Numbered from the stretch's first letter, positions 11,931-57,640 are shown. The stretch: 64,000 nucleotides of DNA from Candidatus Saccharimonadales bacterium (GCA_035480635.1 DATIHN010000025.1:12384-76383), one strand, 5' to 3'. Numbers and translations: made by a program. Notes: generated from the sequence alone by a model not told the origin.

Positions 11931-12007
11931 TGGCAGGGGTGGCAGGATTCGAACCCGCGGCCTTCGGTTTTGGAGACCGACGCTCTAGCCAACTGAGCTA
12001 CACCCCT
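11931..12007 (-). tRNA. tRNA-Trp (anticodon CCA)
   Basis: reverse complement AGGGGTGTAGCTCAGTTGGCTAGAGCGTCGGTCTCCAAAACCGAAGGCCGCGGGTTCGAATCCTGCCACCCCTGCCA folds as cloverleaf, anticodon loop CTCCAAA. Confidence 0.9.
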
Positions 12008-12051
12008 CTGTGGGCTAGTGATTAGCTTAAGCCCAATTGTATCACTAGCTC

Positions 12052-12213
12052 TTACTTGGACTCTTTGAACTCTACGACCTTTTGGAGCTTCTTGGAATAC
12101 TTGTTTAGCACCAATCGATCCGGAGAATTCTTCGGATTCTTTGAGGTCGTATATACGGTTGTGGGGTCCTCATCGCTTCTTAGCTGGATGAATGGACGAT
12201 TTCGTTTTGGCAT
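12052..12213 (-). CDS. rpmG: 50S ribosomal protein L33
   Basis: 53 aa MPKRNRPFIQLRSDEDPTTVYTTSKNPKNSPDRLVLNKYSKKLQKVVEFKESK matches L33 consensus; GGAGAAAG SD; 3' part of spurious 165-aa ORF. Confidence 0.85.
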   Translation of the reverse strand: MPKRNRPFIQLRSDEDPTTVYTTSKNPKNSPDRLVLNKYSKKLQKVVEFKESK

Positions 12214-12341
12214 ATTACTTTCTCCTGTTGAATTTCTTACCGCGACACAAACCAAGGAGCTGTTTGTGGTGCGGAGAGCGAGGCTTTGCGGCGTAAGCTG
12301 GAACCAGGCAGGGCTGGTGTAAGCTGAAGCCCAAAACGAGC

Positions 12342-12416
<75 letters not shown>

Positions 12417-12417
12417 C

Positions 12418-12504
12418 TGGTGCCGGGTGAGAGATTCGAACTCCCGAAGGCATAAAGCCAGCTGATTTACAGTCAGCCCCCGTTGGCCGCTTGGGTAACC
12501 CGGC
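12418..12504 (-). tRNA. tRNA-Tyr (anticodon GTA), long variable arm
   Basis: rc GCCGGGTTACCCAAGCGG...GCTGACTGTAAATCAGC...GGGAGTTCGAATCTCTCACCCGGCACCA. Confidence 0.85.
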
Positions 12505-12519
12505 ATGTGATGTGTAAAC

Positions 12520-12595
12520 TGGAGCCGACGAGAGGAATCGAACCCCCAACCTACGGTTTACAAAACCGTTGCTCTACCAATTGAGCTACGTCGGC
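12520..12595 (-). tRNA. tRNA-Thr (anticodon TGT)
   Basis: rc GCCGACGTAGCTCAATTGGTAGAGCAACGGTTTTGTAAACCGTAGGTTGGGGGTTCGATTCCTCTCGTCGGCTCCA. Confidence 0.85.
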
Positions 12596-28990: not shown

Positions 28991-30244
28991 ATGTCAAAGT
29001 ATCACCTAATTGCGATATTTTTAACGCTTTTCGACTTCCTAACATTGTCGGTTGCGTCATTAATTAATCCGACATGTATTGACGAGGAAACCGCGTTCAA
29101 TGATGACTTTACAATTCTGATTCCAATCTTTGGAGACCTCAGGTACTTAAAAAATATAAAATTCCTGCAGAACTATGGCAAAAGAGTACTGCTCTGCTCT
29201 ACAAATCAAGAGTCTAATGAGTTTAATCGTGAAATCAATCAAATTGCGAGGGACTTCGGTTTTAGAATACATCGATCTTCAATCCGTAAAACAAACGGCA
29301 GAGTCAAGCCAAACCCTTGGAAGCTATTTACAAAAACCCTTTCTAACTCCCGCATTACAACTGATGCCAGAGATGAAATAATTGCAAACAGCTTTGTTGT
29401 TGTAAAAACAAAATTTTGTATCTTCCTAGATGGTGACACGGAGTCAAACGATAGTTTGTATCGGCTAGTGGGATTGATGGACGAGAAAAACTACGACATT
29501 GCTTCAGTTCGAGTGCTTGTGGCTAAACCCACTACTCTAACAGAAAAACTTCAAGCTATAGAATATCAATTCGCCATGGACGCTCGTCGCGTATATCCGT
29601 GGCTCACCTCTGGAGCATGTATGGTCGCAAAAACGAAAGTTATCCGCGACATCATGCAACACCATTCACTTTTTTTTAGTGGTGGAGACATAGAAGTAGG
29701 GAAGCTGGCAAAATTATTACATTATAGGGTTGGTCATCTGGCCTTTGAGTTTTTCACTGATGCCCCGTCAACATTTGCTGCTTGGTTTAGACAGAGAATG
29801 GCTTGGGCTGGCGGGGGCTTCAGACACTCGATCATTAATGGATATAAATATACATGGCGCCATCCTTTTTATTTCCTGTACTTTACGGTCGTTGTCTACG
29901 GGTTAGTAGCAATCAGGTGGTATGATGCTATAAGGTTTTATAGGTTAATTCCCGCAGTCATTGTGGTGTATTGGATTTTATTGTTTGCCTTCAGATGGAA
30001 AAACCGATCTTGGTTATTTTTTTTATTTCCTTTCTATGCATTAACCCAAGTAATGCTAATCGTCCCGTTGGGCATTTATAGATACACGGTTATGGCCGTA
30101 CAATCGCGCAATATTGGAATAATCCGGCTGCGCGATAAACCTAGCCGAAAGCGAGCTAGAGTACGAAAGCAGCGTACCGGGATAACTGAGATGCCGAGGG
30201 GTAACCAATTTATACCTCAAAGTAGAGCTACACGTTTGGGTTAA
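28991..30244 (+). CDS. membrane-integrated family-2 glycosyltransferase, processive synthase type (D, DxD, QxxRW), in ~38% GC island
   Basis: FLDGDTESND (DxD), FRQRMAWAGGGF (Q-R-R-W-like), C-terminal 4+ TM helices; local GC 32-45% vs ~50% background. Confidence 0.7.
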   Translation: MSKYHLIAIFLTLFDFLTLSVASLINPTCIDEETAFNDDFTILIPIFGDLRYLKNIKFLQNYGKRVLLCSTNQESNEFNREINQIARDFGFRIHRSSIRKTNGRVKPNPWKLFTKTLSNSRITTDARDEIIANSFVVVKTKFCIFLDGDTESNDSLYRLVGLMDEKNYDIASVRVLVAKPTTLTEKLQAIEYQFAMDARRVYPWLTSGACMVAKTKVIRDIMQHHSLFFSGGDIEVGKLAKLLHYRVGHLAFEFFTDAPSTFAAWFRQRMAWAGGGFRHSIINGYKYTWRHPFYFLYFTVVVYGLVAIRWYDAIRFYRLIPAVIVVYWILLFAFRWKNRSWLFFLFPFYALTQVMLIVPLGIYRYTVMAVQSRNIGIIRLRDKPSRKRARVRKQRTGITEMPRGNQFIPQSRATRLG

Positions 30245-33318: not shown

Positions 33319-33786
33319 ATGGCGACTGCTACAAGTACTGAGGTGAAGCGCATCGGCAAATTCGGTGCTGTCGGTATTATTAACACAATTATCGACTTTA
33401 CGATTTATAACGTTCTAACCTCTAAAGTCGGGCTGACCTTAATTCAAGCCAACTTTTTCTCGACGACTGTAGCCATGATCTTTAGTTTCTTTGCTAATAA
33501 AACGGTCGTTTTTCAAAGTCGCAAAGGGAACCCCATCCGGCAAGCCGTCATTTTCTTTATTGTGACGGCTTTTGGGCTCTATGTGCTGCAAAACTTAGTC
33601 ATTCACGCGCTGACAGTGACTTGGACCGGGCCAGTCGATTTGGCTACCCACATCGTCCACAGCCTGGGTTTGGGCGGAACCTTTAGTGATGCTTTCGTGA
33701 TAAAAAACAGCGCTAAAATCGCTGCCATCTTGGTTAGTATGATTTGGAACTACCTGGCCTACAAAAAATGGGTCTTTCCTCAGTGA
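33319..33786 (+). CDS. GtrA-family 4-TM protein (polyprenyl-phosphate-sugar handling/flippase-like)
   Basis: 155 aa, 4 TM, KFGAVGIINTIIDFTIYNVL...WNYLAYKKWVF typical GtrA; start ATG 33319 (ORF-track 33157 overlaps dnaB). Confidence 0.7.
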   Translation: MATATSTEVKRIGKFGAVGIINTIIDFTIYNVLTSKVGLTLIQANFFSTTVAMIFSFFANKTVVFQSRKGNPIRQAVIFFIVTAFGLYVLQNLVIHALTVTWTGPVDLATHIVHSLGLGGTFSDAFVIKNSAKIAAILVSMIWNYLAYKKWVFPQ

Positions 33787-35339
33787 AAAACGGCCGCCTG
33801 ACCAAATTTATTCAGACCCATCTCTACACCATTTTGCTAGTGGCCATCATTGCATTGGCCGCTTTTTTTCGCTTTTATCAGCTCAACCATCTGCCTCCGG
33901 GCTTACATCCGGACGAAGCCGCTAACGGCTTAGACATTTTTCGGATTCTAGAACACCACGACATCCGGCCGCTCTATAACACTAATGGACCAAGGGAATC
34001 GTTGTTCTTTTTCCTGCAAGCTATCTTTGTGGCCATTTTAGGTAATACCATACTGGCGCTCAGAATTGCCCCGGCTCTAATTGGGGTAGCGGCTGTCTTT
34101 ACGACTTATCTGTGGGCTAAGAGTTGGTTTGGGGCCCGTGTGGGGTTGCTAGCCGCCGTTATTATGGCCGTAAATCCCTGGGCCGTCACCATCACCCGCG
34201 ATGGCTTTAGGGCCTCCATGACGCCCTTATTTGTAAGCCTGGTAGCATATTTATACACCAGAGCCTTCCAGACGAAATCGAAGCGCTGGTTTATTGCGGC
34301 CGGTGCCACCATGGGCCTGGGCATGTATACTTATTTGTCATTTCGACTTTTCCCGGTGGCGCTAGCTGCCATCTGGCTGGCTCTGGAAATTTGGCGCCGC
34401 GACTTTATTAAACCCTTTCGTAAAAGCATCATCGCAAGCCTAATTGCCTTTGCGATATTGATGATTCCTATGGGGCTCTACGGCATCAAGCACCCAGGTG
34501 ATTTGGGCGCCAGAGCCTCTGGTACCAGCTTTTTAAACAAAGATCTAAACGGTGGCCACCCGGTCCAAACTCTAGCTTCCAATATCGCTAAAACCGCCCT
34601 GATGTTTAATGTTCATGGCGATGAAAATTATCGTCAGAACCTGGGCGGACAGCCACTGCTGAACATTTTTGTGGGTGTCATGTTTATTCTTGGCATATTG
34701 ATATGCCTGGTTCACTTCAACCGGCCGCGCTACTATGGATTAATCTTTATTTTTGGCGCTATGCTAGTGCCCGAGGTTCTGACCGCCGAAGGCATCCCAC
34801 ATGCTTTGCGCTCGATTGGGGCCTTGCCAGCCGCGGTGATTTTAGCGGCCTTAGGTATCGAATACATGTTGGAGCGTTGGTATGCCACCTTCCCGATCAA
34901 TGCGGCCGCCAGATATAGTGGGCTAGCCATCATCTTGGTTTTAATCGGCCTAACCATCTACCAAGGCTATACCCAATACTTTGTGGCTTGGGCTAATTCA
35001 CCCCAAACTTATGAGGCTTACAGCGAAGATTCAGTCGCGCTAGCTAAATACATGCTGGCCCATCCTTTTACCGGTGAACGCTACGCCGTGGTCGATGGCT
35101 ATTCCGATAAAACCGTCTATTACCTAACTCATAATCATTTGAGCTATACGCGCATCGATCCCAGCCAGATTGCCGGCTTGCCAGTCGATGGCCAGCCCAA
35201 ACAGTTTGTGATTGTTAGAAGCCAGTATGACGCTGCGATCAAACCTCTACGCGATCATTGGGCCGGCGGTAAGCTCAGCCCCGGGTATTCGACCTTCAAT
35301 GCCAGCGAAATCTACGATGTCTACGAGGTCACCAAATGA
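33783..35339 (+). CDS. GT-C fold glycosyltransferase (PMT/ArnT-like, family 39/83) multi-TM
   Basis: ~12 TM; HPDEAANG DE motif in first extracytoplasmic loop; GTG 33783 overlaps gtrA TGA (GTGA); upstream ATG 33744 alternative. Confidence 0.7.
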   Translation: MKNGRLTKFIQTHLYTILLVAIIALAAFFRFYQLNHLPPGLHPDEAANGLDIFRILEHHDIRPLYNTNGPRESLFFFLQAIFVAILGNTILALRIAPALIGVAAVFTTYLWAKSWFGARVGLLAAVIMAVNPWAVTITRDGFRASMTPLFVSLVAYLYTRAFQTKSKRWFIAAGATMGLGMYTYLSFRLFPVALAAIWLALEIWRRDFIKPFRKSIIASLIAFAILMIPMGLYGIKHPGDLGARASGTSFLNKDLNGGHPVQTLASNIAKTALMFNVHGDENYRQNLGGQPLLNIFVGVMFILGILICLVHFNRPRYYGLIFIFGAMLVPEVLTAEGIPHALRSIGALPAAVILAALGIEYMLERWYATFPINAAARYSGLAIILVLIGLTIYQGYTQYFVAWANSPQTYEAYSEDSVALAKYMLAHPFTGERYAVVDGYSDKTVYYLTHNHLSYTRIDPSQIAGLPVDGQPKQFVIVRSQYDAAIKPLRDHWAGGKLSPGYSTFNASEIYDVYEVTK

Positions 35340-37564
35340 GCGAGGTCCCAGACCTCAGCATTGTCATCCCAGCTTATAACGAGGGTGCCCAATTTGATGA
35401 TCGGATGAAGCTTCTAGCCGATTGGTTGCATAAGCACGACTACGGCCAGGTTGAAATTTTGATCATGATGCAAAACGATGACACCTCCGGGGACGTCGAA
35501 GAAGCCCAGGCCTTTACCAAACACCACCCCGGCTTTAGGGTGATAAATCTCGGTCAGCGGGCGGGCAAAGGTGGCGCTGTCAAGGCTGGGATGATGGCCG
35601 CTGGAGGCCGCTACCGTTTGTTTATGGATGCCGATTTAGCAACACCGCTGAAGCATTTGGATGATGTTAAGGCCTTAATGGATCGAGGAGCCAAAGTTGG
35701 TATTGCCATCCGCAATCTAGTTTCCACCCATAAGGGTTTGATGCGAAAACTGATTACAAGATCTGGTAACATCATGGCTCAAATCATTTTGCTACCCGGG
35801 ATTAAAGATACTCAATGCGGCTTTAAGGTTTTTGAAGCAAACGCCGCTGAGCAAATCTTTAGCCGCCAGACCTTGAGTGGCTGGGGCTTTGATTTGGAGA
35901 TTCTAGCCATCGCCAGAATGCTAGGCTATACCATCGAGACTTTCCCAGCCAACGACTGGAAGGACCCCAAGGCGGCCGGGCTGGTCGGCGATTCACCCAT
36001 CAAAGCGGCGATTCAAGTCTTCTTAGACCTTATCAACGTCCGCTGGGGATTGATGACCGGCCGCTACAAGCGACCGCAAACGAGCTTAACACACGCCAGT
36101 GTTCAAGAGCGCCTAGCCGAAACCTACGACCGCTTGGTACTAGCCGGTGCCATTTTGGTTGGGGCGCTATTGCGTTTTATTAACATTTCCAAAGCCAGCA
36201 TTTGGCATGATGAGGGCTATACCATGATGCTAGCACCCCAGTCTCCGGCCCAGATCATCGCGCGGACCGCTCGCGACGTCCACCCGCCCCTGTATTATCT
36301 GAGCTTGCATTATTGGATTAGGATATTTGGCGTAAGCGAACTTGGGGCTAGATCGCTCAGTGCCATCTTAATGCTAGCAGCCATCATAGTCGGCTTTCTA
36401 CTGGCTAGAGAACTCTTTGGTCATCGGGTGGCCCGCCTGAGTGCCGTCTTTTTGGCGCTAGGGCCTTTCTTAATCCGCTACGGTCAAGAGGCCAGGATGT
36501 ACGCCATGGCCGCGTTTCTAGCGGTGCTGGCAACTTATTTGTTAGTTAGAGCTCAAAGGACTAACCGCTGGTGGTTTTGGGCTAGTTATAGTTTGGCGAT
36601 TGCGGCCGGCCTCTACACTCATTATTACTTTATTTTCATTATCATTTTGCACTGGCTCTATATGATAGCCGTCCGGCAGCCCAGATGGGGGATCAAGCGA
36701 GTCGGCTGGTGGCTGGCCAACTGGGGCAGCGCCATGCTCTTTTTACCTTGGCTACCCAAAGCCTACGATCAGTTTAGTCGGGTTCAAGCAGCTTTTTGGA
36801 TTCCTAAAGCTAACTACCTCACGCTGCCCTCGACCATGGCCCAATTTTTAACTTTCACCGATTTGGGCCGAATCGCTGCCATATTGAGATTCTCGGGTTT
36901 TGTCTTGCTGATGGTCGCATCAATTATTTTAGCCCTCAAACGCAAATATTTTCCCAGTGGTGCCTTGATCGCCGGTCTAACTTTCTTGGGGCCACTGGCT
37001 GTCTTGATCGTCTCCCTGGGTAAGCGTCCGATTTACGTCGATCGCTATTTTGTTTTTGCCGCCGTCGGCTTCTACATTCTACTAGCTGCCATCTTGTATC
37101 TAGTGGCGCCCTTTGAACGTAGCCGGATGGCCCGTTGGGCGGCCATATTCGTCTTGCTCGTAACCTTTGGCATCGGCACCCATAACGTCTATGCTCAGGC
37201 CACCCACGCCATGGGGCAGGTCGGTGATTATGTTGACGCCAACTATTCGCCTGGAGATGCAATCGTCTCAGGTGAGCTCTATACCTACTTTGACTTTAGC
37301 TACTACAACCACACCGGATCCACCACCCTGTTGCTAGCACCTGGTGGCGTCACTGGCTACGGCGAGACTAGCTTGCTCTATGATCGGGCCGACAAAATAG
37401 TGGTGGCCAGCTTTAACCAAGTTCATCCGGCTTCAGGCTACGTTTGGGTGGTCGGTAAGCCTGGCCACAACGATGACTTCGCCGTGCCGGCCAGCTGGCG
37501 CTTACTTGATGATTTCCAGGCCGCCGATAGTGAAGTTCGACACTACCACACCAGCGGTTCTTAG
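35336..37564 (+). CDS. fusion protein: N-terminal GT2 polyprenyl-phosphate sugar synthase (DPM1/ArnC-like) + C-terminal GT-C (PMT/ArnT-like) membrane transferase
   Basis: LSIVIPAYNE, MDADLATP (DAD), then from ~aa 270 a second multi-TM domain with HDEGYT DE motif; single 742-aa ORF. Confidence 0.75.
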   Translation: MSEVPDLSIVIPAYNEGAQFDDRMKLLADWLHKHDYGQVEILIMMQNDDTSGDVEEAQAFTKHHPGFRVINLGQRAGKGGAVKAGMMAAGGRYRLFMDADLATPLKHLDDVKALMDRGAKVGIAIRNLVSTHKGLMRKLITRSGNIMAQIILLPGIKDTQCGFKVFEANAAEQIFSRQTLSGWGFDLEILAIARMLGYTIETFPANDWKDPKAAGLVGDSPIKAAIQVFLDLINVRWGLMTGRYKRPQTSLTHASVQERLAETYDRLVLAGAILVGALLRFINISKASIWHDEGYTMMLAPQSPAQIIARTARDVHPPLYYLSLHYWIRIFGVSELGARSLSAILMLAAIIVGFLLARELFGHRVARLSAVFLALGPFLIRYGQEARMYAMAAFLAVLATYLLVRAQRTNRWWFWASYSLAIAAGLYTHYYFIFIIILHWLYMIAVRQPRWGIKRVGWWLANWGSAMLFLPWLPKAYDQFSRVQAAFWIPKANYLTLPSTMAQFLTFTDLGRIAAILRFSGFVLLMVASIILALKRKYFPSGALIAGLTFLGPLAVLIVSLGKRPIYVDRYFVFAAVGFYILLAAILYLVAPFERSRMARWAAIFVLLVTFGIGTHNVYAQATHAMGQVGDYVDANYSPGDAIVSGELYTYFDFSYYNHTGSTTLLLAPGGVTGYGETSLLYDRADKIVVASFNQVHPASGYVWVVGKPGHNDDFAVPASWRLLDDFQAADSEVRHYHTSGS

Positions 37565-42820: not shown

Positions 42821-42895
42821 TGGGGCGTAGCCAAGCGGTAAGGCAACGGGTTTTGGTCCCGTGATTCGCAGGTTCGAATCCTGCCGCCCCAGCCA
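42821..42895 (+). tRNA. tRNA-Gln (anticodon TTG)
   Basis: TGGGGCGTAGCCAAGCGGTAAGGCAACGGGTTTTGGTCCCGTGATTCGCAGGTTCGAATCCTGCCGCCCCAGCCA; U1:A72 as in bacterial tRNA-Gln. Confidence 0.9.
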
Positions 42896-57553: not shown

Positions 57554-57640
57554 TGGTGGGCGAGGAGAGACTTGAACTCTCACGTTGTTGCCAACACCGG
57601 ATTTTGAGTCCGGCGCGTCTGCCAATTCCGCCACTCGCCC
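57554..57640 (-). tRNA. tRNA-Leu (anticodon CAA), long variable arm
   Basis: rc GGGCGAGTGGCGGAATTGGCAGACGCGCCGGACTCAAAATCCGGTGTTGGCAACAACGTGAGAGTTCAAGTCTCTCCTCGCCCACCA. Confidence 0.85.

Follow-up and report, generated by a model that had tools for sequence, protein, structure and literature searches.

Organization of the gene module

The three overlapping genes located between dnaX-dnaB and ybaB-recR in the window, i.e., the whole 64,000-nucleotide stretch of Candidatus Saccharimonadales DNA that was analyzed, probably represent the Saccharimonadia version of a three-component extracytoplasmic glycosylation system, in which an ancestral set of four genes has lost the stop codon and spacer separating the GT2 gene from that of the second GT-C transferase (GT-C2). 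The resulting GT2::GT-C fusion is real and forms a single gene rather than an assembly artifact, and the "three-gene" layout described in an earlier note on this DNA derives from a conserved module of four genes. The features of the module are as follows.

33319..33786, + strand: GtrA-like small membrane protein, 155 aa (full-length match to Pfam PF04138; hydropathy)
33783..35339, + strand: GT-C1, free-standing PMT_2-type GT-C glycosyltransferase, 518 aa (Pfam)
33912..33917, + strand: codons of D44-E45 of GT-C1 (HPDEAANG), read from the sequence, just past the first hydrophobic segment
35336..37564, + strand: GT2::GT-C fusion, single 742-aa ORF without internal stop
35336..36070, + strand: GT2 domain (GT-A fold) of the polyprenyl-phosphate glycosyltransferase type, aa 1-245
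35627..35635, + strand: D98-A99-D100 (DXD) motif of GT2, invariant in 16 fused homologues
36071..36100, + strand: linker core, aa 246-255, from protein and DNA alignments with L003 (split) and L001 (fused)
36101..37210, + strand: transmembrane domain of GT-C2, aa 256-625
36209..36214, + strand: codons of D292-E293 of GT-C2 (WHDEGYT), invariant in 16 fused homologues; position relative to the helix taken from the model
37211..37561, + strand: soluble α/β domain at the C terminus, aa 626-742, from the secondary structure of the model

All three ORFs are free of internal stops, and adjacent genes overlap by 4 nt, with GTGA at the GtrA/GT-C1 boundary (GTG at 33783-33785, TGA at 33784-33786) and ATGA at the GT-C1/fusion boundary (ATG at 35336-35338, TGA at 35337-35339). 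Coordinates, reading frames, and overlaps were checked and bear out the three translationally coupled ORFs of the earlier note, GT-C1 comprising 518 aa; the motifs given in that note, LSIVIPAYNE, DADLATP, HDEGYT, and HPDEAANG, were all found in the sequence. A scan for promoters and terminators gave counts at chance level and was uninformative on operon structure. The 742-aa protein is identical to the nr entry HSX15098.1, which is labelled "glycosyltransferase family 39 protein".

Domain composition and structure prediction

In Pfam searches, all three proteins exceeded the thresholds. The first matches GtrA_DPMS_TM (PF04138; 2.3e-20) over its full length and displays about four hydrophobic segments in the hydropathy analysis, in accordance with its initial description as a GtrA-like protein with four transmembrane segments. 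This multi-pass member of the GtrA family is encoded directly upstream, in overlap with the next gene, and an orthologue holds the equivalent position in the loci of relatives; it is presumed to be a helper that handles or flips the lipid-linked sugar. GT-C1 matches both PMT_2 (2e-16) and PMT (PF02366; 1.5e-5, 25.1 bits versus a cutoff of 22.7), whereas GT-C2 matches PMT_2 but not PF02366. Close orthologues of GT-C1 keep the HPDEAANG motif, which varies in those more distantly related. With 29% identity over 108 aa, GT-C1 and GT-C2 are, as judged from their sequences, only distantly related. In the fusion protein, Glycos_transf_2 (PF00535; 9e-18) covers aa 8-175 and PMT_2 (5.5e-15) aa 316-473.

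AlphaFold2 yielded a model of the fusion protein with a pLDDT of 94.8 and a pTM of 0.87 when run with an alignment of 149 rows; the single-sequence run gave a pLDDT of 44.5. In the fold comparison, DPMS, GtrB, and ArnC came up for the N-terminal part and ArnT, Pmt4, STT3, and ALG12 for the C-terminal part, with the Pmt1-Pmt2 complex (6p2r) also among the structural matches. The prediction thus shows a GT2 fold followed by a GT-C fold, and the prospect that the C-terminal half might lack a GT-C fold or a DE motif, which would have pointed to an unrelated protein such as a transporter, is countered by the matches to ArnT, Pmt4, and STT3 and by the presence of D292-E293. The Kyte-Doolittle analysis was too coarse for counting helices, for which we relied on the model and on the fold matches. 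The first transmembrane helix of GT-C2 extends from residue 256 to 281, and D292-E293, presumed to be the catalytic acidic pair, lies about 10 residues beyond it, in what known GT-C topology would make the first outer loop. By the same analogy, which underlies the sidedness of the DE motif and the relative placement of the domains, the C-terminal domain (aa 626-742) is presumed to lie outside the membrane. Across 16 fused homologues, which share 23-36% identity with the protein of the window, the DAD motif (98-100) and D292-E293 are invariant; D158, D186, DVHPP (314-318), and E385/R387 vary little or not at all.

With its PF00535 match, its DXD motif (DAD), and its likeness to DPMS, GtrB, and ArnC, the GT2 domain belongs to the polyprenyl-phosphate glycosyltransferase type. 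No transmembrane helix is part of it: its last element is an amphipathic helix (aa 221-241), the helix that follows is already the first transmembrane helix of GT-C2, and the C-terminal anchor helices of the GtrB/ArnC subtype are absent. Stand-alone GT2 orthologues stop right after the amphipathic helix and, being only 250-260 aa long, likewise lack a transmembrane anchor. The linker between the two domains is predicted with lower confidence (mean pLDDT, 76-83).

Conservation of the locus

In relatives, the locus consists of four genes encoding GtrA, GT-C1, a GT2 of ~250 aa without transmembrane helices, and GT-C2; among Saccharimonadia loci, the placement of GT-C1 ahead of GT2 is conserved. 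The order dnaX-dnaB-GtrA-GT-C1-GT2-GT-C2-ybaB-recR-cysS was found in at least 12 species-representative Saccharimonadia/Patescibacteria genomes, plus L001 and L003. The GC content of the module is native, and its GC3 of 0.55-0.60 is that of the neighboring genes. Given this synteny, which is conserved across Saccharimonadia, and the native GC and GC3, a recent insertion or horizontal transfer was rejected: the module is ancestral, contrary to the earlier suggestion that it was inserted into a conserved locus.

Comparison with known systems and proposed pathway

Three-component systems include GtrA/GtrB/GtrC (O-antigen glucosylation), CsbB/GtcA/YfhO (lipoteichoic acid glycosylation), and PpgS (Rv3631)/Rv3632/Rv3779 of Mycobacterium tuberculosis. 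As in the window, a GT2 polyprenyl-phosphate glycosyltransferase, a GtrA-family protein, and a GT-C are encoded together in these systems; they possess one GT-C, whereas the module has two, one of which is covalently joined to GT2, and GtrB has two transmembrane helices, whereas GT2 has none. The general scheme of such systems has been described (PMC11127046, PMC8035078), and these review-type papers do not mention fused components. Compared with ArnC/ArnE-ArnF/ArnT, identity is only 12-19%, a GtrA protein takes the place of an ArnE/F-type (SMR) flippase, and the nearby genes are dnaX, dnaB, ybaB, and recR rather than genes for Ara4N synthesis. The organism, a saccharibacterium, is not known to make lipid A. 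Membership in the GT83 ArnT family was rejected, as the PDB sequence search gave no ArnT match, identity in structural alignments was 12-14%, and arn neighbors are absent. With the GT39 PMTs (Pmt1/2/4 and actinobacterial Pmt), identity is 12-13%, and GT-C2 matches only PMT_2, the broader of the two models; no MIR domain was detected.

The anchor-less GT2 resembles the Ppm1-D2 type and not the GtrB/ArnC subtype. In M. tuberculosis, D1 and D2 of Ppm1 form one protein (D1::D2, Rv2051c); separate proteins, Ppm2 and Ppm1, take its place in M. smegmatis, where the two parts interact (PMC3485146), and in Corynebacterium glutamicum. In both cases, a GT2 synthase without an anchor either is fused to an integral membrane partner or is encoded next to it and bound by it, and related lineages differ in which of the two applies (PMC3485146); in Ppm1, however, the partner is a six-transmembrane, non-GT-C domain at the N terminus, whereas here it is a product-consuming GT-C at the C terminus. 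The DPMS of Pyrococcus furiosus (5mlz), in which GT2 has a GtrA-like membrane domain of four helices, not a GT-C, as its fusion partner, shows natural fusion of this type of GT2 to other components of the pathway. Overall, Pfam and fold matches support the earlier view that the gene content mirrors GtrABC-, ArnC/ArnT-, and Ppm/Pmt-type systems, with a distantly related second GT-C alongside.

As to the sugar, the best PDB sequence match of the GT2 domain is the P. furiosus enzyme 5mlz, a mannose synthase (1.5e-6), relatives carry the JGI label of glucosyltransferases, and every NCBIfam match falls far under its cutoff; the NCBIfam and PDB signals are too weak and mixed for a call. The "mannosyltransferase" labels found on the proteins are automatic.

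From the observed domain identities and folds, conserved catalytic motifs, gene order, junction, and distribution, we infer a lipid carrier, a sugar, a flipping role for GtrA, acceptors, and any channeling benefit, arranged as follows. At the cytoplasmic face, the GT2 domain, with its DAD motif, would move a hexose from a nucleotide sugar onto polyprenyl phosphate; the lipid-linked sugar would then reach the outer face with GtrA as a likely helper; and there both GT-Cs, each with an acidic pair past its first transmembrane helix, would use it to glycosylate one or two acceptors of the envelope, candidates being a protein, a glycolipid, or a wall polymer. The fusion would mainly provide the membrane-less GT2 with a permanent anchor beside its consumer, paralleled by the fused and split forms of Ppm1 D1/D2.

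That two acceptor specificities are fed by one donor is plausible. A possible, if not favored, variant is that GT-C1 and GT-C2 form one heteromer similar to yeast Pmt1-Pmt2, itself a structural match, or add sugars successively to one acceptor, since the two GT-C genes stay together in many genomes; their distant relationship argues against this, as do minimal loci, which hold GtrA and GT2::GT-C with no other GT-C nearby and in which GT-C2 alone suffices. It is unlikely that GT2 directly glycosylates an acceptor at the cytoplasmic face, e.g., a glycolipid or a polymer primer, with the GT-Cs polymerizing or using a donor made elsewhere: its best sequence and structure matches are polyprenyl-phosphate glycosyltransferases, and the tight, recurrent linkage or fusion with GtrA and GT-C is a three-component signature. 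The missing membrane anchor of stand-alone GT2 and the precedent of Ppm1, whose membrane partner binds the synthase, would also suit a GT-C2 that no longer transfers sugar and merely anchors or scaffolds GT2 as Ppm2/D1 does, leaving GT-C1 as the sole working transferase; we regard this as very improbable, as D292-E293, DVHPP, and E385/R387 persist in homologues of such low identity, and as GT-C2 must be the transferase in the minimal loci because no other GT-C is nearby.

Fusion junction and distribution of fusions

The preferred reading, a four-gene system in which two neighboring genes have merged, is illustrated by the split relative L003/L004, where separate genes of the same locus encode GT2 (250 aa) and GT-C2 (485 aa) and where TGA, AAGGAG, and ATG mark their junction. 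In the window and in one orthologue (P0002; 67% identical, same single ORF), a linker stands in place of the stop codon and 14-nt spacer, i.e., it replaces the stop codon, the ribosome-binding site, and the start codon found between the two genes of relatives. P0002 was recovered twice, from contigs of separate assemblies (NCBI GCA_964474165.1 and Logan SRR9179563), and its linker differs from that of the window by an in-frame 2-codon indel. Although almost all relatives have two genes and the window stems from a metagenome-assembled genome, it is therefore hardly conceivable that a sequencing or assembly error erased a stop between two genes, given the separately assembled fused orthologue, a coding linker that goes beyond a mutated stop, the in-frame indel, and about 39 other fused clusters. 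The intact ORF and P0002 also dispose of the concern, voiced in the earlier note, that two genes might be parted by an overlooked stop or frameshift.

In a GTDB scan, matches spanning residues 5-738 were nearly all two adjacent genes upon inspection of the ORFs, and the only fused case among the loci checked was L027, which is cut by a contig end. L031 and L042 were considered as frameshifted fusions and rejected, as tblastn showed their ORFs to be GT-C1 followed by GT2. In public data, the GT2+PMT_2 architecture accounts for about 39 clusters when sequences are grouped at 90% identity and for 12 or more at 50%, with candidate division CPR2 among the carriers (e.g., KKR18919.1); in distant fused forms, GtrA lies directly upstream. 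GtrA::GT2 fusions exist as well, as do, more rarely, GtrA::GT2::GT-C fusions (P0276, 933 aa). GT2::GT-C fusions appear to be polyphyletic. As to how far the fusion is conserved, it is shared with P0002 and other clusters, but the genes are split in nearly all relatives. The claim of a novel architecture thus does not stand, the protein itself having an nr entry (HSX15098.1); the architecture is undescribed rather than unseen. No paper describing a GT2::GT-C fusion, or Saccharibacteria with GtrA, was found in a search outside of which most subscription journals lay, which is weak evidence.

Implications

Nearly all relatives keep the two neighboring genes apart, and their merger, specific to this lineage, does not amount to a distinct system design; because most relatives work without the fusion, it may be close to neutral. 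By itself, it is a minor rearrangement, mildly informative and not unique. Gene fusion is a classic sign of two proteins physically working together, and the repeated, apparently independent fusions (GT2::GT-C, GtrA::GT2, and GtrA::GT2::GT-C) tentatively suggest that three-component systems in general might operate as one physical machine. If so, the lipid carrier would run through its cycle of charging, flipping, use, and recharging in one place instead of diffusing via a shared pool, and natural single-chain versions would be ready-made structural subjects for the flipping step. To our knowledge, the passage of the lipid-linked sugar from GT2 via GtrA to GT-C is still unresolved in this widespread pathway; stable single-chain GT2::GT-C proteins, and the rarer GtrA::GT2::GT-C, would be convenient for cryo-EM and coupled activity assays.

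Saccharimonadia genomes are very small, and the module is among few envelope-glycosylation loci conserved across this group. Its glycosylation processes have been called "unexplored" (bioRxiv 10.1101/2024.11.25.624915), and the module may matter for the surface biology of Saccharimonadia and their attachment to host bacteria.

Domain organization of the three-gene module

The module that the earlier note had placed between dnaX-dnaB and ybaB-recR consists of three consecutive plus-strand open reading frames (ORFs) with 4-nt overlaps, and both the frames and the flanking genes dnaX, dnaB, ybaB and recR were recovered as described there.

Genes of the module and their Pfam matches
33319-33786, + strand: GtrA, small membrane protein, 155 aa counted from the ATG picked in the earlier note; GtrA_DPMS_TM, E 2.3e-20
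33783-33786, + strand: GTGA overlap of GtrA and GT-C1, 4 nt
33783-35339, + strand: GT-C1, free-standing GT-C, ORF of 518 aa; PMT_2, E 2e-16, and PMT, E 1.5e-5
35336-35339, + strand: ATGA overlap of GT-C1 and the fusion, 4 nt
35336-37564, + strand: GT2::GT-C fusion, ORF of 742 aa, no internal stops; Glycos_transf_2 at aa 8-175, E 9e-18, and PMT_2 at aa 316-473, E 5.5e-15

All listed matches exceed the curated threshold of their Pfam family, in agreement with the predicted GtrA, GT2 and GT-C domains. The fusion has the same sequence as nr entry HSX15098.1, which originates from a Candidatus Saccharimonadales metagenome-assembled genome and is labelled "glycosyltransferase family 39 protein". GT-C1 and the GT-C part of the fusion (GT-C2) share 29% identity over 108 aa and are distant relatives only.

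Predicted structure and conserved residues of the fusion

AlphaFold was used to model the fusion from a 149-row alignment comprising fused, GT2-only and GT-C-only homologues. The resulting model reached a pLDDT of 94.8 and a pTM of 0.87; a single-sequence run gave a pLDDT of 44.5. When the model was compared with the PDB using Foldseek, the top match of the C-terminal part was ArnT (5ezm), with an E-value of 6.7e-10 and, normalised to ArnT, a TM-score of 0.61; STT3, PglB, AglB, Pmt4 and ALG9 came next. The N-terminal part matched the polyprenyl-phosphate glycosyltransferases DPMS, ArnC and GtrB. Residue conservation was read from 16 fused homologues, which are 23-36% identical to the fusion except for a closer one at 66%. 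Invariant or nearly so are DAD 98-100, D158 and D186 in the GT2 part, and D292-E293, DVHPP 314-318, E385 and R387 in the GT-C part. The two alternatives raised previously, that the C-terminal half is an unrelated transporter and that the ORF is actually two genes, are therefore both ruled out.

Origin of the fusion

The closest homologues of each part are stand-alone proteins, with 72-76% identity and 250-256 aa for GT2 and 60-64% identity and about 490 aa for GT-C. Specifically, a 62%-identical relative with separate genes (loci L003/L004) has the order dnaX, dnaB, (dehydrogenase), GtrA, GT-C1, GT2 (250 aa), GT-C2 (485 aa) and, further on, ybaB, recR and cysS. Its GT2/GT-C2 junction packs a stop codon (TGA), a ribosome-binding site (AAGGAG) and a start codon (ATG) into 14 nt, and it is this junction that is read through as a linker in the window and in P0002, the fused orthologue in locus L001 (67% identity). 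Since P0002 is present on two separately assembled contigs, and its linker differs from that of the window by an in-frame 2-codon indel, the fusion is genuine and has been maintained; it goes back to a lineage-specific event in which two neighbouring genes recently merged.

The surrounding arrangement is older. When proteins of the window were compared with the retrieved loci by tblastn, at least 12 species-representative genomes, as well as L001 and L003, showed the order dnaX-dnaB-GtrA-GT-C1-GT2-GT-C2-ybaB-recR-cysS, and the GC and GC3 of the three module genes (GC3 0.55-0.60) match those of dnaX, dnaB and recR. Within Saccharimonadia, then, this gene order is ancient and has been inherited vertically, and the module, which the earlier note had taken for an insertion into a conserved locus, is not a recent insertion. 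In further loci from Saccharimonadia/Patescibacteria (L020-L022, L026, L028, L030, L032, L036, L042), GtrA, GT-C1 and GT2 are followed by about 2 kb before ybaB, in which tblastn gave no GT-C2 match at E<1e-6; the GT-C2 slot of these loci presumably holds a much more divergent partner.

By its composition and position, it is another glycosyltransferase gene, not the GtrA/GT-C module, that looks like a recent acquisition. Flanked by a small hypothetical gene on one side and dnaX on the other, this GT2 gene (28991-30244) has a GC of 0.41 and a GC3 of 0.40, versus about 0.50-0.55 and 0.55-0.59 for its neighbours, and no counterpart was found at that position in L001 and L003.

Other features of the window
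28991-30244, + strand: membrane GT2, 417 aa; PF13632 Glyco_trans_2_3, 4.5e-12
11931-12595, - strand: four-tRNA cluster, Trp-CCA, Thr-GGT, Tyr-GTA and Thr-TGT
42821-42895: single tRNA, Gln
57554-57640: single tRNA, Leu

Distribution of fused forms

When 1.84 billion cluster representatives were searched exhaustively with HMMER, colinear alignments across both domains were obtained for at least 12 representatives at 50% identity; all six of those that were domain-scanned contain GT2 and PMT_2. Searched with a profile, the 90%-identity collection gave about 39 fused clusters, 723-769 aa long, most of which stem from Saccharimonadales or Patescibacteria genomes and bear the label "glycosyltransferase" or "family 39". 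Candidate division CPR2 contributes one fused cluster (e.g., KKR18919.1). Among GTDB species representatives, an ORF check found nearly every locus split and only one fused ORF, in L027, which is cut by the contig end. In a neighbour-joining tree of GT-C domains, the fused proteins fall at four or five or more separate positions among unfused ones, an event count that is provisional as the tree carries no support values. Consistently, identity of the window's domains is 60-76% with split orthologues, compared with about 35% with the other fused proteins.

GtrA also lies directly upstream of distant fused genes. P0300 and P0324 are GtrA::GT2 two-domain proteins, and P0276, a 933-aa protein from a JGI metagenome and labelled there as "putative flippase GtrA", contains GtrA, GT2 and PMT_2 in that order and is thus a single chain with all three pathway components.

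Stand-alone GT2 homologues with 56-58% identity to the window GT2 domain (P0192, P0193, P0204 and locus L024) are labelled Arthrobacter or Pseudonocardiaceae. As Saccharibacteria live on actinobacterial hosts, these could reflect gene transfer, or equally mis-binned contigs. Homologues of GT-C2 with 28-36% identity, sometimes two in tandem, were seen on Pseudomonas and Serratia chromosomes (L025, L038-L040, L043, L049, L051-L053, L059, L071), so the GT-C family reaches well beyond Patescibacteria; in L053, the GT2 part of the match falls in a 321-aa ORF ahead of a 527-aa GT-C ORF.

Proposed function and precedents

Orthologues that consist of GT2 alone lack the length for a transmembrane anchor; their chains stop directly behind an amphipathic helix (aa 221-241 of the model). 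Whereas GtrB and ArnC have helices of their own, the window-type GT2 has none; in PfDPMS, a GtrA-like membrane domain is carried on the GT2 protein. The closest precedent is mycobacterial Ppm1, whose catalytic domain is fused to the membrane domain in M. tuberculosis, the two being separate, interacting proteins in M. smegmatis (PMC3485146). Based on the anchor-less GT2 and the Ppm1 precedent, we propose that the GT2 domain would load a hexose onto polyprenyl phosphate at the inner face, GtrA would assist translocation, and GT-C1 and GT-C2 would pass the sugar on outside; the fusion would supply the anchor and hold the synthase beside its consumer. The two GT-Cs may serve two acceptors or two successive steps, or form a heteromer. 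Pilins are one candidate acceptor, because O-glycosylation sites were predicted on them in a preprint on Saccharibacteria pili that calls glycosylation processes "unexplored" (bioRxiv 10.1101/2024.11.25.624915); no link between pilins and the module emerged from this analysis.

In the literature searched, which covered few subscription journals, no description of a GT2::GT-C fusion was found, and fused components go unmentioned in the papers checked on three-component systems. Overall, the observation of the earlier note is confirmed and its interpretation supported in part. The fusion is real, but the claim of a novel architecture goes too far, as public clusters already contain it: GT2::GT-C is a fused variant of a known system that has gone unremarked in databases. 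Besides being a possible structural target, the fusion constitutes Rosetta-stone evidence for the physical coupling of donor synthesis and donor use.
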